Sequence record: MT446413.1
Length of the DNA stretch: 64,000 nucleotides
Source of the DNA: Escherichia virus TH42
Strand: one strand, 5' to 3'
Part shown: in pieces, positions 5,965 through 22,894 of the stretch
Layout of the letters: each line of letters begins with the position of its first letter
Position numbering within the stretch: the stretch's first letter is position 1
The notes under the pieces: model-generated
Told to the model about the DNA's origin: nothing
Database searches by the model: none
The model's input: the letters and a program-made list of their open reading frames with translations, nothing else
Position numbers and translations under genes: made by a program

Positions 5965-6043
<79 letters not shown>

Positions 6044-11449: not shown

Positions 11450-11482
11450 AAAGAAAAGGCGCTACCCTTTCGAATAGCGCCT
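11450..11482 (-). terminator. rho-independent terminator
   Basis: Perfect 8-bp stem AGGCGCTA/TAGCGCCT with A-tract on plus strand; directly downstream of gene 11503..12405. Confidence 0.6.
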
Positions 11483-11502
11483 TATATGTTCTTTATTGTA
11501 GG

Positions 11503-12405
11503 TTATGCAGCTTGTTGGCGTGCTGCCATGATCTCGGCAGCTTTACGCAATACTTCTTCCTCGTCTGCCGCCGCTTTCTCGTTCGCTTTGACAGTAGAAG
11601 CTGTAGAGATACGACCGCGAAGGTTAGACAATTTTTCAGTCATTTCGTTGATCGCTTTTTCCATTTCATCAGCGTATGAGTCCAGCGATTCAAGCTCTTT
11701 AACTGAGGCATTGATCAGATAGTCATCGCTGATAGATACAGTTGATGCGGTTACTTTCTTAAGGAGTGAATCAAAAGTTTTCTTAACTTTGCCTACTTCT
11801 TCACTCAATGCGATAGTGTTATCAGAAGATGCACCGTTGCGCTCGTCTGCCAACAAGGCCGCTTCAATACGGATGGCAGCTAAACGATCAGTTAGAGCGT
11901 AAATATCCTGATTAAAGTTTTCGTTAACCTTCTGGTTAATCTGATTTGCTACCGGAACGTTGTCGTTGCAGCCTTTATAGAAAGCTGGATTATCGACCTG
12001 TACATCTTCACCTTTAGCAAAGCGTTCGAAGGAGTTAGACCAGCGGGCACGGTTTTGCTCCATTTTGGTTTTAACCTGTTCCGGTTTAGCATCTTCTTTC
12101 GCTTTCGCTTCACCTTCCAGATTAATCCATTTCTTTTTACCGTTCGCCCCGTCGCTGTTGTACTTGATAGGAGTGAGGAAAGAGATTGCAACCGCAATCA
12201 CATCTAAATCACGGTAACGCTCAGTCAGTAAGAAATCTACCGCCCCCTGCAATACATCCAGCTTCTTACCGTTAGCACGGAAGTGCTGCAAATGACCTAA
12301 CAGGAAGTTAGAAACATCTTGCTTAATCGCTGCGTTGTTGCTACGGATATTGTTAGCCAGTGCGTTAAAGCCAGATTCGTTAACCAGATTGAAAGATTTA
12401 GCCAT
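11503..12405 (-). CDS. hypothetical protein (300 aa)
   Basis: Long track ORF with own terminator; first gene downstream of the ORF-poor region. Confidence 0.6.
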   Translation of the reverse strand: MAKSFNLVNESGFNALANNIRSNNAAIKQDVSNFLLGHLQHFRANGKKLDVLQGAVDFLLTERYRDLDVIAVAISFLTPIKYNSDGANGKKKWINLEGEAKAKEDAKPEQVKTKMEQNRARWSNSFERFAKGEDVQVDNPAFYKGCNDNVPVANQINQKVNENFNQDIYALTDRLAAIRIEAALLADERNGASSDNTIALSEEVGKVKKTFDSLLKKVTASTVSISDDYLINASVKELESLDSYADEMEKAINEMTEKLSNLRGRISTASTVKANEKAAADEEEVLRKAAEIMAARQQAA

Positions 12406-13224
12406 GATAATTTACCTTTTAATTAAAACGCTCTATGCGCCGCTCTCTATGAGCTATTCAAGTCACAATGACTTAACACTAATCACTAACTATTAGTAAC
12501 CAGTGGTAAATCAGGCGGACTTATCAGGAGTTAACCTTGCCGCCTAACTTTCCATGATGTTTCATCCGGTGGATTCTATTAATCGCTATAAACGAAGCCG
12601 ATTTGCCAGCGATGATTAATCATCATAATAAGGCAGTGTGCCCATCTCTAATTAGCTAACGTTCTAGCCGATGGTAATGCTGTTTACTTTACGTTCGCTC
12701 CGCGATACCCTTTTATATTAACTCTCTAAGCCGACTTATCACCTACTACGGGAAAGTATATGGCAAAGAGTCACTAACCGCCTGATAGATTGGCGTTTGA
12801 TTATCTCTCTCGCGATTTACTACAGTGCATTGTTATGTACTCACATCTTATTGACGTGTTTCAAACAACTTGCTTAGTAAACACTCACACTTAAACCTTA
12901 TTATTAAATAGCAATTTGCTACTCTTTAACCTTCACACCGTCGCTCGCTATTGAGCGTTAATTCGTCGGGATTGACTACCCTGATTAACGTCTATTACCG
13001 TAGCACTTTACTAGCACCGCCGCCGCTACCCTTTAACCGTAGGTGATTAGCTTAAGCCTTGCATGTACTCGATAACTTCGTTTATCAGTGGCATCGTTTC
13101 CAGTAAGGGAATGTAAAGCGGTTTTCTCTGATATTTTAGAGCGCCTTACATCGTTTTATCTGGCATAACTTGCAATGGTTATTATTGCTCGTTATGTTCA
13201 ACCGATATAGGAAGAAGTTTAAAT

Positions 13225-14393
13225 TGTTAAAGAGCGGTAAATCTATCGAAGTGCTTTCTCACTTCCCGCCACCGTTCGCCGTGGTTTCGCGTTTCACTAG
13301 TTGCCTAGTGAGTGCTCATTATGAATCATCCCGTTTAGCGTGTCAACCACTTTTTTTAAATCTTTTTCTCGTCTATTCTTTCGAATGACCAGTTAATCAC
13401 ACATTGGATTAACAAGATTGTAAGCGGTTGCGCTTAACTTTCTGATTCATATTTTTAAAGAGCGGTGCGGTTTTCATGACTCCGCAAACATTTTCATTTT
13501 GAAGTCTACTTATGCACTAACGGGGCGACTACACCCGACCTACACGCTGCACTATGTGCCACCTTTCCCGCGCTACGTCACTTAGGGGAACTGTTTAGCA
13601 AGTTGCCTTGCTTAGTGAACATTCTAACAGAGTGTTTCACCTTGTCAACTCTTTTTATCATCTTCTTTTATTCTATTCCCTTATCTCGCGTGAATCTTTG
13701 CGAAAGGGCAAGATGATAATTTGTTAAAGAGCGTTAAATCTGTCGCCGTCTTCCTCGGCTTCGTGCCTTGAGTGTTCCCACTCCTTCCAGTTTAAGCCTT
13801 TTTACATGATGCTAATCATCTATCTGGAAGTGTTCTGTACTGCTGAGATCACATCTTATCATAGTGATTCGACGTGTCAACAACTATTTTTCGATTAATG
13901 CATCTTGATAAACTAGCGACCATTGAGGCCGCTAACCTACCTTAGTTCATACGTTTAAAGGTTAAATCTTTATCCGTACTTACCAGCGATAACACCGCGA
14001 TAGATTTGCCATTGTCGGCATCAGCTATCATTTCTTTCGCTTGCTGTAACGTGCTACCGACTATTCTCATAATCATGTTAGTAACGTTAATGCTAGTGCA
14101 AGTGATTTGCGTGTCTTTGCTTGAGAAGGTGTAAATGTTCATGGATAAATCCTCATTATGGCATGGTTGGGAGTTTATCAAGATACACTAATCGAATTTT
14201 TAAAGAGCTAGTAAACAAAGTTTGCCTTGAGAGAATCTAGTACACTGTTAAACGCTGATTTCTTTGAAGTATCGACCTTATAGGCCGCCAAATCCACGCA
14301 TGAAAGAGGAATCGACTAGGATAATCAACTAAGTGCCTTATAGTAATGACGCTTGTTAGCACCACTCCTAAGCAAACCTTGTTTTTAAAGAGC
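13225..14393 (+). repeat. array of six same-orientation TTTAAAGAGC-type motifs in an ORF-poor region
   Basis: Copies at 13225-13248, 13454-13465, 13721-13745, 13954-13976, 14197-14208, 14384-14393; two are near-identical 24-25-mers (TTGTTAAAGAGCGGTAAATCTATCG vs TTGTTAAAGAGCGTTAAATCTGTCG). Confidence 0.6.
13942..14181 (-). CDS. hypothetical protein (79 aa), uncertain
   Basis: Only minus-strand track ORF inside the ORF-poor region. Confidence 0.3.
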   Translation of the reverse strand: MINSQPCHNEDLSMNIYTFSSKDTQITCTSINVTNMIMRIVGSTLQQAKEMIADADNGKSIAVLSLVSTDKDLTFKRMN

Positions 14394-14642
14394 AAGGCTA
14401 AAAGTCTAGCCTATCAGGCTTGTTACCGACTGCATAACTAAACCTGAGATTCAAATATAAATCTATCAAGCAAAGAAAGCAATACCTTTTTCTAAAATAA
14501 TTTCACTTTCTTTTAGGTATAGATGAGCACGCGCACGAATAACATCAGGGGAGGAAGAAAACAAGCCTTATAATCGAAAATAAGGCATACAGGAGGCGTT
14601 CTAACGAGCTAAACAGGGGCAAGATGTGCAATCACCTTAGAA

Positions 14643-14670
14643 ATGAAAAAAGCGCCTCAAAAGGGCGCTT
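14643..14670 (-). terminator. rho-independent terminator
   Basis: AGCGCC-loop-GGCGCT with A-tract on plus strand, just downstream of gene 14690..15031. Confidence 0.55.
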
Positions 14671-14689
14671 AGGAAGTCTTACGGGTTGG

Positions 14690-15031
14690 TTACGGATTGG
14701 TGCAAGTGCCGTTACCGGATGATATTTCGTTCATCGACTCATCGAACAACGTCATACTAGACCGCATCATGTGATCAATAGTAATTTGTTTGCCTGTAGC
14801 TTCGTTAACAAGCATCGCATATTTGCTATCAACAACCTTGTTGTCGTAGTCATTCAGGTCAATCAATACTACCTTGCTGGACTTCTTGCCAGTGTCGTAA
14901 TTTTCCATAAGGTAGGTACATTGCAGGCCATCGAGATTAGCCTCATTGAATACGGCAGCATAAGACACGGAAGAAACAGCGAACAAGGCAGCACATACAG
15001 CTAATTTAATTTTCATAATCCAATCCTCCAA
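14690..15031 (-). CDS. putative secreted protein (113 aa)
   Basis: N-terminal signal-peptide-like MKIKLAVCAALFAVSSVSYAA. Confidence 0.5.
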   Translation of the reverse strand: MEDWIMKIKLAVCAALFAVSSVSYAAVFNEANLDGLQCTYLMENYDTGKKSSKVVLIDLNDYDNKVVDSKYAMLVNEATGKQITIDHMMRSSMTLFDESMNEISSGNGTCTNP

Positions 15032-15392: not shown

Positions 15393-16285
15393 TGGATAGC
15401 CTCACAATTAGCAAAGTTAATAAAGGTTGTATAAACTGCTACACCGTCATTGTAAGCAGTGGTAGCGAGTACAGTTTCACTAACATCACCATAGCTAACG
15501 AGATTAGTCACGAACTGTAATTTCTCTTTCTCAACCTTCTGATATAGAGAGTATGTAACCATGTCATGATCACTATCAGCACGCTTTAAATTAATAACCG
15601 ACTGAATGCCTGATTTCTCACTTAACGGGGTAAGAGTGACACGCACATCTTTTACGGTTACAGAGTTAAAATGCACCTTCCAGAATGAATCATTACCATC
15701 ACTGCCAACGTCACGGCAAGCCATATCAGGAGCATTCTTAAACGTGCTAACAAAGGATTGAAGACCTGTAGAAAGAGAGTCTTTTGCCTGCACATTGGTA
15801 GCGATAGCACTAACACTGATAGCTGCAACCAGCGCATAACTTGCAAGGTTGACAGACTTCATAATCTTACTTGCAATAGAAGGCTTACTATCTTTCTTCT
15901 TCTTGTTCTGAACAGCTTCAACCATAGCAGACAAGCGGGATAATACTGCGTTAACATCGCGGCAAGATTCAGGCCAATCATTCTGAGTCCAACTATCTAA
16001 ATTAGCCTGAATGTAACAGTTGATAGCATCTTGCATATCTGTAAAACCATTCTCTTTCATTGACTGCTCATCTTCACACTGTAAGGCGTTCGCAGCGGAA
16101 TCTATGATAAGACAAGCCAGAATGACAGAGTTTTTAAAGCTGGTGCGAGCTTGCTGGTTATCCATCCATTGAGAAGGCACACCAACGGAAAGACCTAACA
16201 GAGAAAGTACATCATTTGCCTGATTCAAGTATTTAATTGCTAACTTTGACATTTCATTAATCCTTTCGGTTGATGTGAACTGCAA
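15389..16285 (-). CDS. hypothetical protein (298 aa)
   Basis: Track ORF; first gene of the minus block next to the divergent region. Confidence 0.55.
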   Translation of the reverse strand: MQFTSTERINEMSKLAIKYLNQANDVLSLLGLSVGVPSQWMDNQQARTSFKNSVILACLIIDSAANALQCEDEQSMKENGFTDMQDAINCYIQANLDSWTQNDWPESCRDVNAVLSRLSAMVEAVQNKKKKDSKPSIASKIMKSVNLASYALVAAISVSAIATNVQAKDSLSTGLQSFVSTFKNAPDMACRDVGSDGNDSFWKVHFNSVTVKDVRVTLTPLSEKSGIQSVINLKRADSDHDMVTYSLYQKVEKEKLQFVTNLVSYGDVSETVLATTAYNDGVAVYTTFINFANCEAIQ

Positions 16286-16443
16286 ACTACAGTCGCAACT
16301 ATATATTAAAGGAAAAACATGTCAACCACTTATTTTCAAACTATTTCATAACTCATTGAATCTAAAAGGAATTTAATTTACTAAACTTTCTTACTCAGAG
16401 GTACAGCTTACTAACAGAATGTTACTTTATAACGCTTATAGAA

Positions 16444-17038
16444 CGGGTAGCAGATCAACGGTAACGACAGATGGGTAGAACGTGCCGCATAGGTTAGCCA
16501 ATGGGTAAGAAGCCTAACGAGGAAGGGGAAACGGGTAGGATATAATGTAAGTTAGTTACAGGTAACAGGTCAGACCATGCGGGAGTTAATTACCAGTCAA
16601 ATAATTTACTCAAACAACAAAAGAAAAAGACCAACAGCACGCTGAAAAAGAAAAAGATTAAAAGAAAGGATTAACATAATCACTTAAGTAAACAATAACC
16701 AGTCTAAACATACATACATCAATAATCCACTCATAAATAATCACATAAGTTATTACATTCAAACTATGGGGAGTGTGTGGGTTGATATAATTGCATGGTG
16801 TTACCATGTGGGTATCATTAATGTTCTTACTATTAATACCGGTTAGTTATAGTCTTCTATTAGTATGCCTGTACAGTACATCAGAGTCTAGCCTTTCATC
16901 CCTTCTCAACATGAGTAAGAGAAATACGGGTAGGAAATCACTGGTTAGATATACATGGGTAGATTCGCATTACTAGATAATGCTCATGGGTAAATAATGC
17001 ATGTCTAATATCAATGGGTAGGGTATTTATGGGTAGGT
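16444..17038 (+). repeat. iteron-like array of (A/C)(T/C)GGGTA(G/A) motifs in the divergent intergenic region
   Basis: Copies at about 16444, 16471, 16501, 16531, 16926, 16956, 16985, 17013, 17029; more ATGGGT(G/T) copies at 17408-17520; no ORF of 60 aa or more across 16290-17230 on the block strands. Confidence 0.55.
16542..16549 (+). promoter_or_regulatory. ATAATGTA motif (candidate phage promoter element)
   Basis: One of seven (T/A)(G/A)TAATGTA occurrences lying in intergenic or gene-end DNA and oriented with downstream genes. Confidence 0.2.
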
Positions 17039-17233
17039 GTGCCACTGAACGCAGATAGGGCAAGGCTTAGAGCTTAAAGGCTGATTGATTTCCTAAAGGC
17101 GATTGCATTCCCTATAACCCTTTTTTAAATGAGGACTCCCCCTTTTACCAAAACACGCTCGGAGGGGCTAGGTCCACTCGGTCAAATCAGAATTTTAAAC
17201 CCTTATATATAACTATATGCCCCAACGTTAGTT

Positions 17234-17425
17234 GTGGATTTAAGAGTGAGGAACAACTTTATGTGGAAATTGAAGATGATTATCAGGCAGATTAAATGTA
17301 ATCACGAGTACTACCCAATCCGGATATCGAGAGGTGATGAACGGTTACATGCTTATTACAAGAGTACATGGAGGTGTGCAGATTGTGGTAAGGTTAAGAA
17401 TAGTAAATGGGTGGATAGGCCTTAA
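17234..17425 (+). CDS. small zinc-ribbon-like protein (63 aa)
   Basis: C..H....C..C pattern; first plus-strand ORF after the divergent region. Confidence 0.4.
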   Translation: MDLRVRNNFMWKLKMIIRQIKCNHEYYPIRISRGDERLHAYYKSTWRCADCGKVKNSKWVDRP

Positions 17426-17547
17426 CATGACATGGCCTTTATGAAGTCCCCTTTACATCAGCGTACATGGGTTCATACATGGGTGGGCCTTTAGATGAGT
17501 AAGCCTTTATGGGTTGATCACTCTCGTTTATCAGAGGAGATATAAAA

Positions 17548-17796
17548 ATGATTCTAGACTTTTTATCAGAGCTGCTTCCTTACTTCCGCACTGAAAGATG
17601 TGCATTTGTATTTGATGAAGGGGAGGAGGTATTGAGTTGTTTGGGTAGATTAGTAGACCTAGATGACGATGAAGATTTTGATGCTACGATGGATATTAGT
17701 TCATTGGGCTGGTTGTACATGAGATGCTTTGTAACCTACAAGGCTGAGACGTTTAAAGACTATCGTTATAACACGGAAGGAGAGAATGATGAATAA
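17548..17796 (+). CDS. hypothetical acidic protein (82 aa)
   Basis: Track ORF with GGAG-type RBS upstream. Confidence 0.45.
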   Translation: MILDFLSELLPYFRTERCAFVFDEGEEVLSCLGRLVDLDDDEDFDATMDISSLGWLYMRCFVTYKAETFKDYRYNTEGENDE

Positions 17797-18442
17797 TATG
17801 ACAGGAACTAATACACTGAATGCAATCTACGAGAACATGGGATGTAAAGGCGAGGTTGTTTACAATGGTAATCTCCGTCCCTTATCAGAGGACACTCTCT
17901 ATCTGAATCGTGTTCATGAAACCACTGGAGGTAAATCCCGAGTTGAGATGGTAAAACAATTGGCTCATGGTTCTGTGTATGGTCATGCTCCTTCAACCCG
18001 TGAACTATGGGAAAGTTTGATTCCTCGTACAGAAGCTAAAGATGTGAAAGATTATTTTACTGTAGCAAAAGAAGTTAAACGCAAGTGTCCATCCAATTTA
18101 GAAGTTGTTCCGTATGTATCTGACAAACATGCACACCTACCGGATTATGCCCGTGAGATGATTGAGATGATAGAAGAAGCTGAGTATGAAGCTCTGAATA
18201 ATTATTTAAATTCGAAAGATCAGTGGTCACGTAATGTAGTAATTGATGAAGAAGGTAATGAAGTAGTTACGTGGGTACATGCTAGTGAACAAGCTCTGGA
18301 CCCCGAGCTTGAAGAATACAAAAAATTTTTGGCGTCCTCTTCTTTTGATGTAGAGAATGACAAATCTGTTCCAGTGACTTGGGAAGGTGAAACTGTAGCT
18401 CTCCAGACTTTGTTCAACCTACACGTAGGTAATGTAGATTAA
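17786..18442 (+). CDS. hypothetical protein (218 aa)
   Basis: Track ORF on block strand. Confidence 0.55.
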   Translation: MMNNMTGTNTLNAIYENMGCKGEVVYNGNLRPLSEDTLYLNRVHETTGGKSRVEMVKQLAHGSVYGHAPSTRELWESLIPRTEAKDVKDYFTVAKEVKRKCPSNLEVVPYVSDKHAHLPDYAREMIEMIEEAEYEALNNYLNSKDQWSRNVVIDEEGNEVVTWVHASEQALDPELEEYKKFLASSSFDVENDKSVPVTWEGETVALQTLFNLHVGNVD

Positions 18443-18507
18443 TAAAAGGTGTTGCCTCCTCTAGTGGGAGGCTTTTTGTTATAACGATAATGTAGAAGGA
18501 GTATAAG

Positions 18508-18975
18508 ATGTTTGGAGAAAAAGGAGAACTCACGCCTGCACAGGTAGCTGAGGTTACAGGAAGATTACCCGGTGTAACTGATGAATTGGAAAACCGTGGT
18601 ATGGAGCCAAGCACAGGGAAGTTCCAAAAGGGAAATAAGTTCGGACGACCCAAAGGTAGTAGAGGTAAGTTGACACAGCTCATGTTGGACCGAGTTGCTT
18701 CAAGTCATCTGTCCCCTGATGAAGTGTTGATTCAAATTTATGAAGATCCAAATATTCCACCTGATCTTAGATTCAAGGCTGCAAGTAAAGTTGCAGATCT
18801 GGTATATCCGAAGGCAGCTTCTGTTGAGATTAAGATTGAGGAAGAGAATGTAATTAATGAAGATTCATTGAACGCACAAATCAAGGACTTCTTGGCTGGA
18901 GCATTAGGTGCAGATGTGCTACCTCCAGAGGACTCTGAGGACGCTGAAAAGGAGGAGGAAGCGGACGAGAGTTAA
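18508..18975 (+). CDS. putative terminase small subunit (155 aa)
   Basis: Position directly upstream of large terminase, size, acidic C-terminus; call rests on synteny only. Confidence 0.4.
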   Translation: MFGEKGELTPAQVAEVTGRLPGVTDELENRGMEPSTGKFQKGNKFGRPKGSRGKLTQLMLDRVASSHLSPDEVLIQIYEDPNIPPDLRFKAASKVADLVYPKAASVEIKIEEENVINEDSLNAQIKDFLAGALGADVLPPEDSEDAEKEEEADES

Positions 18976-19041
18976 TAGGAATAAAGGGGAGGGTTCTTTT
19001 CGCGAGGGATCTCTCCCTTTTCTATTTTAATTGGAGGAAAC

Positions 19042-20583
19042 ATGTCATTAGATAAAGAAATATATGAAGCACTAACTGGAGACAAACTATCGGTAGAGGA
19101 GAAGAAGGCTCTGCTTGAAATGCTGAAGGATAGAGATCAATGGAGAAAGTATAATAGGATTCTTTCTTTTAAAGCATACCAGTTTCAGAAAGACTTTTAT
19201 GCAGCGGGACTGAAGCATCGCTTTAGATTCCTGTGTGCAGCTAACCGTGTTGGTAAATCTTACAGCGAGGCATACGAGTTTGCTTGTCATGTCACAGGTC
19301 GCTACCCAACTTGGTGGACAGGATATAGATTTAATCGACCCATATTGGCTTGGGCAGTAGGGATTACAGGGGACTCTACAAGAAAGGTATTGCAAAAGGA
19401 ATTGTTTGGAACACCTATCGGAAAGGATACAAACTTATTAGGGACGGGTGTTATTCCTCGTGATGCTATCGTCATTGACACGATAGAACGAGATGGAAAC
19501 AAATTACAGATCGTACAAATCAAGCACCAAAATGCTAGAGGCGAATTTGATGGGCTGAGTACGTTAGAGTTTCGTTCTACCCAACAAGGTGAACACACAT
19601 TAATGGGTGCTACAGTGGATTACATTTGGCTGGATGAAGAAGATCCTTATGAAAGTATGGCAATCTTCTCTCAGTGCGTAACACGTACACTTACTACTAA
19701 AGGTTTAGTTACGATTACAGCTACACCAGAGAACGGATTAACAGAGCTGGTGGACAAGTTTATGAAAGGTGAAGGGGACGAGAACACAGGTTCTCTATAT
19801 TTCCAAAATGCTTCTTGGTGGGATGCTCATGTGGACCTAGGTGGTCACATCTCTGACCAAGATATAAAGGATATGACAGAAGGTATTCCGGCATGGCAGC
19901 TAGAGATGCGCTCTAAAGGTATGCCTCTGTTGGGTTCAGGTTTGATTTATGATGTATCTGATGATTCAATTAAGTGTGACCCGTTTGAAATTCCTGATAC
20001 GTGGAAACGTGTTTGTGCCATTGATATTGGTATTGATCACCCGACGGCAGCTGTATGGTCAGCTTATGATGCTAACACCGATACAATCTACATTTATGAC
20101 TGCTATAAAGAAAGTGGCTTTACTCCAGTGTATCATGCACCAGCTATTAATGGTCGTGGTCAGTGGATTCCAGTCATTCTTCCTCACGATGCTGATAACA
20201 TTGAGAAGGGAAGTGGTGCTTCTGTAGCACAATTCTATAAAAATGCAGGAGTAAACGTACAAAATGATACCTTCCATAACAAGATCGGAATGGATGGTAA
20301 GAAGAACTTCTTTGTGGAGCCAGGAATTACTGATATTCGTGAGCGTATGATGTCAGGTCGATTCAAAGTCTTTAATACTACCGCATGTGCTAAGCTCTTT
20401 GAAGAGAAAGCACGTTACCATCGAAAAGTTGGTAAGATTATTAAAGAACATGATGACCTTATGGACGCAATGCGATATTCAGCTTGTTCTGTTACACACA
20501 GAGGTCGGTCTAAGCATGACGCTAGCTATGGTAGCTCGTCGCTTTATCAAGAAAATATTAACAGATGGAATCAAAGCTACTAA
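19042..20583 (+). CDS. terL: terminase large subunit
   Basis: 513 aa; Walker-A-like CAANRVGKS near N-terminus, acidic nuclease-domain residues in C-terminal half; followed by portal-sized gene. Confidence 0.85.
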   Translation: MSLDKEIYEALTGDKLSVEEKKALLEMLKDRDQWRKYNRILSFKAYQFQKDFYAAGLKHRFRFLCAANRVGKSYSEAYEFACHVTGRYPTWWTGYRFNRPILAWAVGITGDSTRKVLQKELFGTPIGKDTNLLGTGVIPRDAIVIDTIERDGNKLQIVQIKHQNARGEFDGLSTLEFRSTQQGEHTLMGATVDYIWLDEEDPYESMAIFSQCVTRTLTTKGLVTITATPENGLTELVDKFMKGEGDENTGSLYFQNASWWDAHVDLGGHISDQDIKDMTEGIPAWQLEMRSKGMPLLGSGLIYDVSDDSIKCDPFEIPDTWKRVCAIDIGIDHPTAAVWSAYDANTDTIYIYDCYKESGFTPVYHAPAINGRGQWIPVILPHDADNIEKGSGASVAQFYKNAGVNVQNDTFHNKIGMDGKKNFFVEPGITDIRERMMSGRFKVFNTTACAKLFEEKARYHRKVGKIIKEHDDLMDAMRYSACSVTHRGRSKHDASYGSSSLYQENINRWNQSY

Positions 20584-20650
20584 ATATAGTGGGGAGGCTA
20601 GTCCTCCCTTTAGTAGTTTACTCCAAGCTATCAACCGAGGGAGAGATTAG

Positions 20651-22894
20651 ATGGCTAAGAAGAAATTTAGTGAAGATATTTTGGATGAATTACGCGTTGA
20701 CCTTCAACGTCGATTCAATTATGCACAAGGTTATGTAGACCTCGCTGTAAAAGGTTATTCTCGTGAAGCATGGGAATACTTCTACGGAAACTTACCAGCT
20801 CCAGTAACTGCTGGAAGCTCTAGTTGGGTAGATCGTACAGTATGGGAGTCTGTTAACGGAACTCTCCAAGATATCATTAACGTATTCTGTTCAGGCGATG
20901 AAGCGGTGACGTTTGTTGCGGACAACCAAGCAGATTCGGATGCAGCTGATGTAGCAACTAAGCTGGTAAACCAAATCTTGCTTCGTGATAATCCGGGATA
21001 TAACATCATTTCCTCAGCGGCTCAGGAATGTCTGGTTACACGTAACTCTTTTATCAAATACTATTGGGATGAACAAACCTCCACTCAAACAGAAGAGGCT
21101 GAGGGCGTACCTCCAGAAGCTTTGGCTGCATACGTACAAGGTATGGAAGCAGGCGGACTTCAAGATTTAGAAATCTTTACCACTGAAAACGATGATGGAA
21201 CAGTGGATGTTAAAGTAACTTACAAACAAACAGTAAAACGTGTTAAAGTAGAATATGTTCCTTCAGAGCAAATCTTTGTTGATGAACATGCTACCTCTTT
21301 TGCAGATGCTCAGTATTTCTGTCATCGCACACGTAAATCTAAAGATGATTTATTAGCAATGGGCTTCCCTAAAGACGAGATCGAAGCGTTTAACGACTGG
21401 ACTGATACAATGGACACCACTCAGTCTACAGTTGCTTGGTCACGTACTGACTGGAGACAGGACATTGATGCAGACATTGGTGTGGACACTGAAGATGTGG
21501 CTTGCATGGTTTGGGTTTATGAGCATTACATCCGTACAGGTGTATTGGATAATAACAAAGAATCTAAACTCTATCAAGTAATCCAAGCAGGTGAGCATAT
21601 TCTCTCTTGTGAAGAAGTAACTAGCATTCCGTTTGTTACTTTCTGTCCTTACCCTATTCCGGGTTCCTTCTATGGTCAATCCGTGTATGACATTACTAAA
21701 GATATTCAAGACCTACGTACAGCACTTGTCCGTGGTTACATTGATAACGTTAACAACGCAAACTATGGTCGATATAAAGCCATTGTAGGAGCCTATGACC
21801 GTCGTTCTTTACTAGACAACCGTCCGGGTGGTGTAGTTGAAATGGAGCGTCAGGATGCGATTGATCTCTTCCCTTACCACAACCTACCTCAAGGTATTGA
21901 TGGTCTGTTAGGAATGTCTGAAGAGTTGAAAGAAACTCGTACAGGTGTTACTAAACTTGGTATGGGTATTAACCCTGATGTATTTAAGAATGATAACGCA
22001 TATGCAACCGTAGGTTTAATGATGAATGCTGCACAGAACCGTCTCCGTATGGTCTGTCGTAACATTGCTCATAATGGTATGGTTGAATTAATGCGTGGTA
22101 TTTACAACCTTGTCAGAGAAAATGGTGAAGTTCCTTTACAGGTTCAAACCCCTCGTGGCATGGTTGAAGTAAATCCTAAACAATTACCAGCTCGTCATAA
22201 TTTACAAGTTGTTGTAGCTATCTCTCCTACTGAGAAATCAGAACGTGCACAGAAACTGATTAGCCTGAAGCAATTGATTGCTGCTGATGCTCAGCTTGCA
22301 CCTCTCTTTACTCTGGAGCAAGATCGTTATATGACTGCACAGATCTTTGAGTTGATGGGTATTAAAGACACTCATAAATATCTTATGCCTCTTGAACAGT
22401 ATCAACCTCCTCAGCCTTCTCCGATGGAAATCCTCCAGCTCGAGATGACTAAAGCTCAGGTTGAGAACGTACAGGCTTCTTCTCAGAAGATGATTGCTGA
22501 TGCATTCGACCAGCGTGAACGTACTACGTTTGAACAGCAGAAAGCTGCGGACGAGTTCAGCTTACGTCAAGAAGAATTGCAATTCAAGCAAGAGAATGCT
22601 GCTGATCAGATGACTCTTGAAAATCGTAAGGAAGATAACTCAGCTACTCTTGAACAAGCTAAGCATAAGCTTTCTCTCCTTCAGCAACAGGTTCGTCAAT
22701 ATGAATCTATACTGAAAGAACTTCAGATGACTATGAATCATCAGGTTGATCTTGAGAAGGTAGACCAGCAAGCTAAAATTCAAGATAAGACTTTGGAACT
22801 CCAAAAGAAAGAAGCAAATGAAACTAAGAAAGAACAACAAAGTTCTCTCAAAGATTCTAGGATTCCTAATAGAAAGCTTGGTAGTAGAAAATAA
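20651..22894 (+). CDS. portal protein (putative)
   Basis: 747 aa between terminase and scaffold/capsid genes; C-terminal coiled-coil. Confidence 0.65.
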   Translation: MAKKKFSEDILDELRVDLQRRFNYAQGYVDLAVKGYSREAWEYFYGNLPAPVTAGSSSWVDRTVWESVNGTLQDIINVFCSGDEAVTFVADNQADSDAADVATKLVNQILLRDNPGYNIISSAAQECLVTRNSFIKYYWDEQTSTQTEEAEGVPPEALAAYVQGMEAGGLQDLEIFTTENDDGTVDVKVTYKQTVKRVKVEYVPSEQIFVDEHATSFADAQYFCHRTRKSKDDLLAMGFPKDEIEAFNDWTDTMDTTQSTVAWSRTDWRQDIDADIGVDTEDVACMVWVYEHYIRTGVLDNNKESKLYQVIQAGEHILSCEEVTSIPFVTFCPYPIPGSFYGQSVYDITKDIQDLRTALVRGYIDNVNNANYGRYKAIVGAYDRRSLLDNRPGGVVEMERQDAIDLFPYHNLPQGIDGLLGMSEELKETRTGVTKLGMGINPDVFKNDNAYATVGLMMNAAQNRLRMVCRNIAHNGMVELMRGIYNLVRENGEVPLQVQTPRGMVEVNPKQLPARHNLQVVVAISPTEKSERAQKLISLKQLIAADAQLAPLFTLEQDRYMTAQIFELMGIKDTHKYLMPLEQYQPPQPSPMEILQLEMTKAQVENVQASSQKMIADAFDQRERTTFEQQKAADEFSLRQEELQFKQENAADQMTLENRKEDNSATLEQAKHKLSLLQQQVRQYESILKELQMTMNHQVDLEKVDQQAKIQDKTLELQKKEANETKKEQQSSLKDSRIPNRKLGSRK

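Follow-up and report, generated by a model that had tools for sequence, protein, structure and literature searches.

The repeated motif in the non-coding island of Escherichia virus TH42, when reverse-complemented, is by its sequence a minus-strand BoxA of the rrn type. The island is likely to be the main early control region of the phage, organised like an rrn operon, in which host RNA polymerase loaded with Nus factors transcribes, and probably helps to fold, a large RNA. The window, meaning the whole 64,000 nucleotide stretch of sequence record MT446413.1 that was analysed, belongs to a phiEco32-like podophage. The island corresponds to the "spacer" region of phiEco32-like phages, which carries σ70 early promoters on the minus strand. 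Three such promoters have been described in the equivalent spacer of SU10 and phiEco32 (PMC4281155).

A sequence-only reading had described the island as ORF-poor, with promoters for small non-coding RNAs among the candidate explanations. It is right that only 13170..13388 (plus strand) and 13942..14181 (minus strand) reach 60 aa, but the minus-strand ORF holds a real, conserved 66-aa gene. Likewise, the island is non-coding regulatory DNA with promoters and a predicted non-coding RNA, but the motif itself is not a promoter.

BoxA sequences in the island

The consensus GYTCTTTAANA is the gamma-proteobacterial BoxA as used by Baniulyte et al. 2017 (PMC5725501). Five perfect matches to it start at 13235, 13463, 13732, 14208, and 14393 on the minus strand, none of them covered by an ORF. 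The motif positions given previously for the plus strand are correct to within 1–2 nt, with TTTAAAGAGC found exactly at 13454, 14199, and 14384 and the one-mismatch form of this 10-mer, GTTAAAGAGC, at 13226 and 13723. Six copies had been counted; five of these stand, and the sixth is degenerate, has three mismatches, and fails the consensus. The two copies reported to be extended and near-identical are indeed so, 13220-13248 and 13717-13745 sharing 90% identity over 29 nt. The motif had also been called antisense to the flanking genes, which holds only for the strand as written; its reverse complement is sense to those genes. The copies and the hairpin associated with the last of them are as follows, with promoters P1 to P3 being those described in the next section.

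14383..14393, minus strand: BoxA-1, GCTCTTTAAAA, a perfect consensus match preceded by T, as in rrn
14198..14208, minus strand: BoxA-2, GCTCTTTAAAA, with the ATG of the 66-aa gene 66 nt downstream (start to start)
~13954-13966: sixth, degenerate motif copy, reading TTTAAAGGTT, within the 3' end of the 66-aa ORF
13722..13732, minus strand: BoxA-3, CGCTCTTTAACAAATTA, ~+115 from the predicted P1 start
13453..13463, minus strand: BoxA-4, CGCTCTTTAAAAATATGAA, ~+152 from the predicted P2 start
13249..13264, minus strand: predicted hairpin at the place of boxB, AAGUGAGAAAGCACUU, its end 13 nt 5' of BoxA-5; helix 5 of alignment A1
13225..13235, minus strand: BoxA-5, CGCTCTTTAACAATTTA, +77 from the predicted P3 start

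Across the whole window GYTCTTTAANA was found 7 times against 0.63 expected, a number reached in none of 100 shuffles. Five of the seven matches are in the island and the other two are antisense within coding ORFs. The plain 10-mer, allowing up to one mismatch, is barely enriched window-wide (13 against 7.5 expected; 5 of 100 shuffles reach 13), and its departure from chance is the clustering, five same-strand copies being packed into 1.2 kb. The spacing of the BoxA copies is irregular, at 185–476 bp, and without helical phasing.

BoxA-5 is identical at 16 of 16 bases to the BoxA and spacer of the E. coli K-12 rrnB leader (GCTCTTTAACAATTTA). In Prasch et al. 2009 (PMC2724277), the oligonucleotide to which NusA binds best is an rrn BoxA-spacer sequence; BoxA-5 agrees with it at 16 of 17 bases and differs solely in starting with C, as lambda does. 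Any transcript of the predicted promoter array must include this copy. Three of the six pairs in the hairpin before BoxA-5 covary, one pair with four pair types, and another hairpin, AGGCTAGACTTTTAGCCT, ends one base upstream of BoxA-1. The energies of local folds upstream of the five BoxA copies are no better than those of shuffles and are not significant. The GU-rich boxC (UGUGUGGG) is absent 3' of all five copies. It has been reported that boxC is unnecessary for antitermination (PMC2724277) and that boxB is dispensable in rrn antitermination (PMC2724277, PMC8632103).

Promoters, terminators, and the small-gene cassette

The predicted promoters of the island are on the minus strand and have the form TTGACA-N16/17-TAxxAT, which is distinct from the BoxA motif.

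14650..14670, minus strand: intrinsic terminator of the first early operon, a 7-bp GC-rich stem followed by TTTTTTCATTTC
14565-14586: second terminator-like hairpin
14454..14503, minus strand: P0, candidate promoter for BoxA-1 and BoxA-2, -35 TTGCTT (14482-14477), 17-nt spacer, -10 TATATT (14459-14454)
13853..13880, minus strand: P1, early promoter, TTGACA-16-TAAGAT with TG before the -10, predicted start ~13846, conserved in relatives
13621..13648, minus strand: P2, early promoter, TTGACA-16-TAGAAT with TG before the -10, 11/12 consensus, predicted start ~13614
13318..13346, minus strand: P3, early promoter, TTGACA-17-CATAAT, 11/12, with an A-rich upstream tract, predicted start ~13311

P1 to P3 score 10–11 of 12 against the σ70 consensus and each has a BoxA 77–152 nt downstream. 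P0 is taken to be a weak, putative promoter because it lies below the threshold of the promoter scan and was picked out by inspection of the sequence; the stretch before it, AAATTATTTTA at 14503-14493, is also present in the rrnB P1 UP element. All of the BoxA copies are on the predicted transcribed strand, ~55–152 nt past predicted σ70 starts. The first early operon, with genes of 298 aa, 82 aa, and 113 aa, is read from a promoter at 16325, and a terminator is annotated in phage SU7 at the place matching that which ends this operon.

Between BoxA-2 and P1 is a small-gene cassette.

13890..14196, minus strand: small-gene cassette, a 34-nt inverted repeat around the ribosome-binding site and the 66-aa ORF
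14142-13942 including the stop codon, minus strand: 66-aa ORF, ATG at 14142, annotated in SU7 and PAS59

The arms of the inverted repeat, 14196-14163 and 13923-13890, are 85% complementary and the consensus fold of five phages retains this 34-nt long-range stem, the 5' arm of which starts two bases past BoxA-2. Compared with phage Bas88, the 66-aa gene has many DNA differences and only two amino-acid differences. It is absent at this place in most relatives.

Conservation among related phages

The 37 related loci contain 132 BoxA sequences in the sense orientation and none in the antisense. Ten of the 11 BoxA positions are essentially invariant across the 132 copies, and C4 and T6, which are critical in the suhB BoxA (PMC5725501), are invariant in the 37 loci. 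BoxA is kept where the sequence directly upstream is non-homologous between clades. In the relatives P3 is found at ~-945 from the gp124 ATG, and BoxA-4 is the conserved copy at ~-1060 relative to the same codon. The number of promoter-BoxA modules per phage ranges from 1 to 5. Alternation of promoter and BoxA was seen in 21 of the 21 cultured relatives examined and also in 9 distant uncultured relatives, obtained by exact-protein look-ups, with gp124 43–68% identical; a protein-anchored IMG/VR scan and one metagenome DNA scan yielded close relatives only. As for the comparison with related phages proposed previously, the motif is conserved, and the leader that follows BoxA-5 shows compensatory changes.

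A literature search for phiEco32 or Kuravirus with boxA, antitermination, or non-coding returned nothing relevant; key phiEco32 papers were outside its coverage and a prior description of these BoxA copies is possible. A paper on the svsR small RNA and kuraviruses is unrelated to the island.

The predicted leader RNA and gene 124

The sequence between BoxA-5 and gene 124 is predicted to be a large structured RNA of ~830 bases that was previously undescribed.

12406..13224, minus strand: predicted untranslated leader RNA, ~820 nt after BoxA-5, 909 nt from the predicted start
12468..12633, minus strand: 3' domain of the leader RNA, three helical elements, the best-supported part of the structure
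11503..12405, minus strand: phiEco32 gene 124 homologue, 300 aa, the first gene past the leader
11456-11483: strong intrinsic terminator after gene 124

Leader length, from the proximal BoxA to the ATG, is 825–936 nt in the 37 loci. The leader has at least two domains, each closed by long-range helices, and an inter-domain helix in which 13050-13039 pairs with 12746-12735. Its single-sequence fold has a z of -6.2. Alignment A1 has 236 consensus pairs, with 98.9% of cells paired, and there are compensatory changes in 78 of these pairs, compared with 37.9 ± 3.7 when shuffled and 8–12 in slid controls; the covariation score is 0.255, against 0.130 for shuffles and at most 0.062 for slid controls. 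In the 3' domain (alignment A5) 41 of 49 pairs covary, with a score of 0.636 against 0.217 for shuffles and at most 0.112 for slid controls, and 97.7% of cells are paired (shuffles, 76.9%; slid controls, 33–43%). Covariance model R1 scores this domain at E = 5.6e-31 and detects a single sense-strand copy per locus in 38 phage loci. Because MAFFT does not align the 5' half reliably with the most distant relatives, what is said of structure in this half of the leader is based on the 21 closer phages.

The structured RNA can be assigned to a strand. G.U cells number 483 in the paired positions of the leader and A.C cells 17, and the consensus folding energy is -248.5 kcal/mol when the sense strand is used but -160.6 when the antisense is used. 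Both point to the minus strand. The leader alignment contains no conserved ORF, and its variable columns are spread over the three codon phases without periodicity (113/110/115).

The covariance-model search that had been suggested for this region matched no known family to the island, Rfam 15 over 12300-14800 giving nothing above 18 bits at E <= 10 with gathering and permissive thresholds. The only gathering-level Rfam match in the window is the tRNA at 5965-6043, and ARAGORN found no tRNA in the island. BLASTN with the leader as query found nothing in 5,426 complete E. coli genomes, which argues that the leader RNA is not host-derived.

The gp124 gene and the leader are both present in the same 97 phage records. 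No Pfam domain was found in gp124, which matches only a PHROG of unknown function. Its AlphaFold model (pLDDT 80.7) is mostly helical, and the best Foldseek match of the model in the PDB has E = 0.57, which points to no role for the RNA. A tentative reading, somewhat short of probable, is that the 830–930 nt leader represents a new family of large structured phage RNA with a function as RNA, for example as a scaffold, a host-factor decoy, or in anti-defence, possibly with gp124, and that it is made and folded via the host rRNA complex.

Proposed mechanism

Host σ70 RNA polymerase would initiate at the three near-consensus tandem minus-strand promoters, and possibly at the weaker fourth, such that an rrn-type BoxA would emerge in the transcript ~50–150 nt after the start. 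NusB and NusE (ribosomal protein S10) would be expected to load on the BoxA of the nascent RNA and, with NusA, NusG, and SuhB, to produce a fast, pause-resistant, Rho-resistant polymerase, as for rRNA. This modified polymerase would then transcribe the ~830-nt untranslated, many-helix RNA, followed by gene 124. That the motif is a BoxA, on which strand it lies, that it follows promoters and is strictly conserved, and that the leader structure covaries are shown by the sequences; the binding of Nus factors at BoxA is inferred from them. Its effect may be antitermination, faster elongation, or RNA chaperoning, and the role of the leader RNA is likewise a matter of inference.

The rrn complex is mainly BoxA-dependent; polymerase carrying it is twice as fast, and pausing and Rho termination are suppressed (PMC8632103). 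The complex also holds the RNA 5' end, delivering it to distant pairing partners (PMC8632103). Retention of BoxA by the complex would keep the RNA 5' end at the polymerase and thus favour closure of long-range helices. In the island, the 5' strands of the long-range helices start directly after BoxA-5 and BoxA-2.

The base composition of the leader is G-rich rather than C-rich (G 23%, C 17%). Being G-rich and highly structured, it would be a poor Rho substrate, therefore BoxA may not chiefly serve to shield it from Rho. Antitermination at rrn reportedly acts mainly on Rho-dependent termination and gene 124 is followed by an intrinsic terminator, so read-through into the remaining early operon is not implied. 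At suhB, BoxA represses translation and promotes termination (PMC5725501). Since BoxA can repress in this way, the sign of its effect is not fixed by sequence.

Alternative explanations

It is unlikely, though less so than any of the other alternatives, that BoxA binds Nus factors but has a main role other than antitermination. It might be a sponge for NusB, NusE, and SuhB, an abundant early RNA with up to five BoxA diverting Nus factors from host rRNA synthesis, or it might repress translation of the small gene. Several BoxA could be present on one transcript from the very strong predicted promoters, and the leader is a poor Rho target, which would suit either role. The repression of a nearby start codon by BoxA is documented at suhB (PMC5725501), and BoxA-2 is 66 nt ahead of the ATG of the 66-aa gene. 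However, that gene is missing in most relatives and BoxA-5, the sole positionally invariant copy, has no start codon within 800 nt, while one BoxA per promoter is the layout expected for loading of the factors in cis. The repeats could instead be remnants of tandem duplication of a promoter cassette, the 11-mer itself being functionless. The modules do look duplicated, as in the 90% identical 29-nt copies, and they differ in number between phages. Against such an origin, all 132 copies keep the 11-mer essentially unchanged while the sequence immediately upstream is non-homologous between clades, it equals the host functional consensus, including the flanking AAUUUA, and it never occurs in the antisense orientation, making this explanation very improbable.

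A role of the motifs in the DNA, as replication-origin iterons or as operator sites bound by a protein of the phage or the host, is slightly less probable again. Short repeats in the same orientation, in a non-coding A+T-rich region with strong promoters near, would be in keeping with it, and there are transcription-activated origins, such as the T7 primary origin. An iteron origin has regularly spaced direct repeats of ~17–22 bp, with an initiator gene and an A+T-rich element for unwinding beside them. Here the conserved core is only 11–17 nt, the spacing is irregular and unphased, and there is no initiator gene nearby, no Rep-like domain having been found in the proteins neighbouring the island. 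In addition, the orientation strictly follows transcription in the 37 loci, and the motif has the very sequence of a signal that acts in RNA. The iterons suggested in the sequence-only reading are therefore not supported. Its two other candidates, that each plus-strand motif is the promoter of a small plus-strand RNA or that the island is decayed coding sequence, have in their favour the repetition itself and nothing else, and are barely tenable. The promoter scan gave 0 σ70-like sites on the plus strand of the region. Rather than several small plus-strand RNAs, the G.U to A.C bias and the folding energies indicate one large minus-strand RNA, and decayed genes are excluded by the pervasive base-pair covariation in an alignment with neither codon periodicity nor a conserved ORF.

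Comparison with known systems

The reading preferred here, an early control region that uses BoxA as the rrn operons do, can be set against the systems it resembles. Compared with the E. coli rrn leader, a boxB-BoxA-boxC nut-like site served by the rRNA antitermination and chaperone complex (NusA, NusB, NusE, NusG, SuhB, and S4), the island has the same BoxA core, one copy of which shares the downstream spacer (GCUCUUUAACAAUUUA), with a putative hairpin 5' of BoxA in the rrn order. As in the rrn operons, there are tandem strong σ70 promoters with A/T-rich upstream tracts, predicted in the case of the phage, and they lead into a long untranslated RNA in which the 5' strands of long-range helices start just past BoxA. 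Unlike rrn, the system is phage-encoded, and each promoter has its own BoxA, up to five in all, where an rrn operon has one in its leader and another in its spacer. It lacks boxC, and BoxA usually follows a C, as it does in lambda. The predicted phage RNA is unrelated to rRNA and runs into a protein-coding gene.

With lambda nutL and nutR the island has in common the presence of BoxA on phage early transcripts for host Nus factors, here by prediction, and a first base of C, as in lambda CGCUCUUA. The lambda BoxA is one U short, however, and precedes a boxB that binds N protein, whereas the island has the full rrn consensus and the putative hairpin comes first, which is not the lambda-type nut order. 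The phiEco32-like phage, in contrast to lambda, is strictly lytic and later uses its own sigma factor.

T7 also has three tandem strong host-type promoters (A1, A2, A3) near the leading genome end. There is one perfect BoxA in T7, at 813-823, +64 from A3, in the untranslated leader before gene 0.3. It is a single BoxA in a ~175-nt leader from A3 with an RNase III site, whereas the island has one BoxA per promoter and the ~830-nt covarying RNA. No function of the T7 BoxA was described in the accessible literature.

The suhB BoxA (PMC5725501) is likewise outside the rRNA operons and has the same consensus. It is 6 nt from the ribosome-binding site, however, and represses translation, leading to Rho termination, whereas the conserved phage copy is more than 800 nt from a start codon.

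Large structured non-coding RNAs of unknown function that are tied to phages and prophages include GOLLD and ROOL. The leader resembles these in being several hundred nt long, in its many covarying helices, and in its phage association. It differs in matching no Rfam family at E <= 10 and in being the 5' leader of an early gene in a lytic coliphage, coupled to BoxA.

Significance

The BoxA/Nus complex has so far been associated with rRNA operons, lambdoid nut sites, and a small number of genes, suhB among them. If the proposed reading is true, a strictly lytic phage has copied the whole rrn design, with its UP-element promoters, hairpin, BoxA, and long RNA with long-range helices. On the more tentative reading of the leader, it would be the first non-ribosomal large RNA entrusted to the host rRNA antitermination and chaperone complex via an rrn-type BoxA array. 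The system would also provide a natural test of the rrn complex as a general co-transcriptional RNA chaperone, beyond antitermination. The T7 BoxA, so far unexplained, may be an instance of the same theme. The promoter-BoxA cassettes are compact, strong, candidate termination-resistant expression modules for E. coli. The leader is one more large covarying RNA to join the few big RNAs of bacteria and phages without a known role. For the phiEco32-like phages, the reading would explain a ~2-kb region that is un- or mis-annotated in ~100 sequenced coliphages, several of which are phage-therapy candidates.

The repeated motif is read as BoxA

The repeated motif reported in the island (12420-14690) by the sequence-only reading is present. 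The sequence TTTAAAGAGC occurs exactly at 13454, 14199 and 14384 and with one mismatch at 13226 and 13723, all on the plus strand. The sixth copy proposed near 13954 has three mismatches to this sequence. The two long near-identical copies are borne out, with 90% identity across 29 nt. Only two ORFs of at least 60 aa touch the island, as its description as ORF-poor would have it, but one of these contains a real gene of 66 aa. The observation is real, but the motif was read on the wrong strand, as antisense to the flanking genes. On the minus strand, the sense strand of those genes, it is GCTCTTTAA(A/C)A, which on sequence grounds is identified as BoxA, the NusB/NusE-binding signal of rRNA operons.

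The rrn BoxA, lambda BoxA and rrn BoxA-spacer given by Prasch et al. are UGCUCUUUA, CGCUCUUA and ugcucuuuaacaauuua (PMC2724277), and the gamma-proteobacterial consensus of Baniulyte et al. is GYTCTTTAANA (PMC5725501). There are 7 perfect matches to this consensus in the window against 0.63 expected, a number reached in 0 out of 100 shuffles. The island accounts for five of these, each on the minus strand, and the remaining two, antisense within coding ORFs, are taken as chance occurrences. The copy at 13235, CCGCTCTTTAACAATTTAAAC, shares 16 consecutive bases with the E. coli K-12 rrnB leader (...GCGGCACTGCTCTTTAACAATTTATCAGACAATCTGTGTGGG).

Promoters and layout of the array

Matches to the island come from phiEco32-like podophages (subfamily Gordonclarkvirinae), the top match being Escherichia virus TH34 (97.6% identity). 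The first early promoter is further upstream of the island, and its operon closes with a terminator. The early promoters of the array are already known, and the BoxA elements are attached to them.

Features of the array and its surroundings
14670-14650, minus strand: terminator of the upstream operon
14493-14503, minus strand: 11-mer AAATTATTTTA, also found in the rrnB P1 UP element, 10 nt upstream of the weak -35 TTGCTT
14482-14454, minus strand: weak candidate promoter TTGCTT-17-TATATT, 3' of the upstream terminator
14393, minus strand: BoxA-1
14208, minus strand: BoxA-2
13890-14196, minus strand: 34-nt long-range stem around the 66-aa gene, after BoxA-2
13880, 13648 and 13346, minus strand: -35 hexamers of three near-consensus promoters
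13732, minus strand: BoxA-3, at about +115 from the first of the three promoters
13463, minus strand: BoxA-4, at about +152 from the second
13235, minus strand: BoxA-5, at +77 from the third
13224-12406, minus strand: untranslated stretch of about 820 nt (the leader), after BoxA-5 and up to the gene 124 ATG
12405, minus strand: ATG of gene 124
11483-11456, minus strand: strong terminator directly 3' of gene 124

The 11-mer may indicate that a fourth promoter, equipped with an rrn-like UP element, lies here. The first early operon, from the promoter at 16325, contains no BoxA with one mismatch allowed. By comparison with the PAS59 terminal repeat, the promoter-BoxA array is a few kilobases from the genome end, reading inward. 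Window positions 16330-17540, between the minus-strand early block and the plus-strand block from 17548, are ORF-poor and are the probable site of the genome ends and the terminal repeat; a search of 15500-21500 turned up no long direct repeat.

Conservation of promoters and BoxA

In every relative there is a gap of about 1.9-2.3 kb at the same place with few or no annotations, flanked by a small gene labelled "terminase" and a homologue of phiEco32 gene 124. The alternation of promoters and BoxA is found in all 21 cultured relatives examined, with a fixed core of BoxA, promoter and BoxA at about -1060, -945 and -830 from the gene 124 ATG, and the same layout is present in eight metagenome contigs. 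A protein search located gp124 homologues (43-68% identity) on uncultured-phage contigs, and in 9 out of 9 of those retrieved the 1.4-3.4 kb upstream of the homologue is free of genes and contains TTGACA-type promoters together with one to three perfect copies of BoxA. Four uncultured relatives (L033 1271-4001, L035 982-4001, L037 62-3501 and L040 454-3501) have larger gaps, of 2.7-3.4 kb, in which promoters, BoxA and leader account only for the proximal 1.0-1.5 kb or so.

BoxA occurs 132 times in sense and 0 times in antisense orientation across 37 loci; 10 out of 11 positions are essentially invariant, and extending the consensus gives C-GCTCTTTAA-M-AAT-N-T-R. The clades share no homology over the 50 nt 5' of BoxA at the -1060 site, yet BoxA itself is retained, as is the AAUAUGAA following it. 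This argues, from sequence comparison, that the BoxA element itself is under selection, rather than merely being carried with a duplicated cassette.

The leader as a structured RNA

The last BoxA precedes the gene 124 ATG by 825-836 nt in 20 of the 21 cultured phages, by 865 nt in phage LAMP and by 870-936 nt in distant relatives. Leader nucleotide identity is 73-96% in the cultured phages; between the window and phiEco32 it is about 75%, beside about 79% protein identity for the adjacent gp124. The leader alignment has no conserved ORF, and its variable columns are evenly spread over the codon phases (113/110/115).

The window leader folds 6.2 standard deviations better than shuffles. For the 21 phages, RNAalifold predicts a consensus of 39 helices with 236 pairs, 78 of these pairs having compensatory double changes against 37.9 +/- 3.7 in column shuffles and 8-12 in slid controls, where the pairing partners are displaced. 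In this consensus 98.9% of cells are paired (shuffles 92.7%, slid 35-46%) and the covariation score is 0.255 (shuffles 0.130, slid at most 0.062). With distant relatives added, 41 of the 49 pairs in the 3' domain (12633-12468) covary, with as many as five or six pair types at some of them, and 97.7% of cells are paired (shuffles 76.9%, slid 33-43%). An inter-domain helix in the wider alignment, AUCGCCCAC with GUGGGCGAU, is changed on both strands in the window clade to AUCACCUAC with GUAGGUGAU (13050-13039 with 12746-12735). Among paired positions, G.U cells number 483 and A.C cells 17, and the sense strand has a consensus fold of -248.5 kcal/mol against -160.6 for the antisense; together these results settle the strand of the RNA as sense.

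A covariance model of the 3' domain has exactly one full-length sense-strand match per locus in 38 phage loci (E 1e-35 to 2e-23), and none in T7, the rrnB leader or elsewhere in the window. No Rfam family matches the leader, and none of 5,426 complete E. coli genomes contains anything like it. The literature searched, outside which are the two primary phiEco32 papers, mentions neither BoxA copies nor a structured RNA in these phages. The leader is a large, strongly covarying RNA, apparently undescribed so far. The protein gp124 gives no clue to its function.

A perfect 14 nt palindrome, GATGATTAATCATC (12611-12624, minus strand), is present in the leader, and in most relatives a hairpin loop also contains the self-complementary CAAUUG (CAATTG, around 12950, helix 16 of A1, the 21-phage leader alignment). 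Such sequences might serve for RNA-RNA dimerisation; the wider alignment instead places the palindrome within a long covarying hairpin. Also inside the leader is GCTATTTAATA (12902-12912, minus strand), one base off BoxA, within GCAAATTGCTATTTAAYAATAAGG, a stretch invariant across the 21 phages. Its C-to-A change is that of the lambda boxA16 oligonucleotide of Prasch et al. (PMC2724277), and it is predicted to be partly within a hairpin (A1 helix 17).

Neighbouring features

The 66-aa gene has a ribosome-binding site and is an annotated feature of SU7 and PAS59. Between the window and Bas88 it differs at many DNA positions but only two amino acids. Its protein has no Pfam or PHROG match. Not all relatives carry this conserved gene: it occurs in the window, TH34, Bas88, TH43, SU7, PAS59 and one metagenome contig. 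The 34-nt inverted repeat at 13890-14196 encloses it. The arrangement looks like either a cassette that was inserted or a processing stem of the RNase III type.

The "terminase" of several relatives is a 113-aa protein (14690-15031, minus strand; PHROG 13168), too small for a terminase and with an N-terminus that by eye is hydrophobic and signal-peptide-like. The label is probably an annotation error copied from record to record. Bas88 has 98.6% protein identity to the window in gp124 but only 80% DNA identity in the leader, while the PAS59 leader is 91% identical. The ancestry seems to be mosaic, with a recombination joint at or near the gene 124 start (12405). Rfam calls a tRNA at 5965-6043 on the minus strand (36.4 bits, gathering score 29), although ARAGORN finds no tRNA in the entire window.

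Proposed role of the array

In the proposed mechanism, sigma-70 polymerase would initiate at the promoter array, BoxA in the nascent RNA would bind NusB-S10, and the polymerase with NusA, NusG and SuhB would form an rrn-type complex. Such complexes depend mainly on BoxA, transcribe twice as fast, and suppress pausing and Rho termination; they also form an RNA chaperone ring, which keeps hold of the 5' nut-like site and thereby brings upstream strands to their distant partners (Said and Wahl review, PMC8632103). The chaperone idea suits the phage layout notably well, since the 5' strand of the domain-1 closing helix starts right after BoxA-5 (A1 columns 120-133 with 409-423) and the 5' arm of the 34-nt stem of the small gene starts two bases past BoxA-2. 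Protection from Rho may matter less for the leader, because of its G-rich composition (C 17%, G 23%) and high degree of pairing. Speed may matter if, speculatively, genome entry is by transcription, as in T7. BoxA is also able to repress a nearby gene, such as suhB (PMC5725501).

In phage T7, a perfect but unannotated BoxA is located at 813-823, at +64 relative to promoter A3 and 100 nt ahead of gene 0.3. T7 therefore shares the design in which BoxA follows tandem early promoters. Judged by their sequence, the island motifs are an array of rrn-type BoxA elements on known early promoters, and following the motif has led to a large, strongly covarying and apparently undescribed leader RNA.
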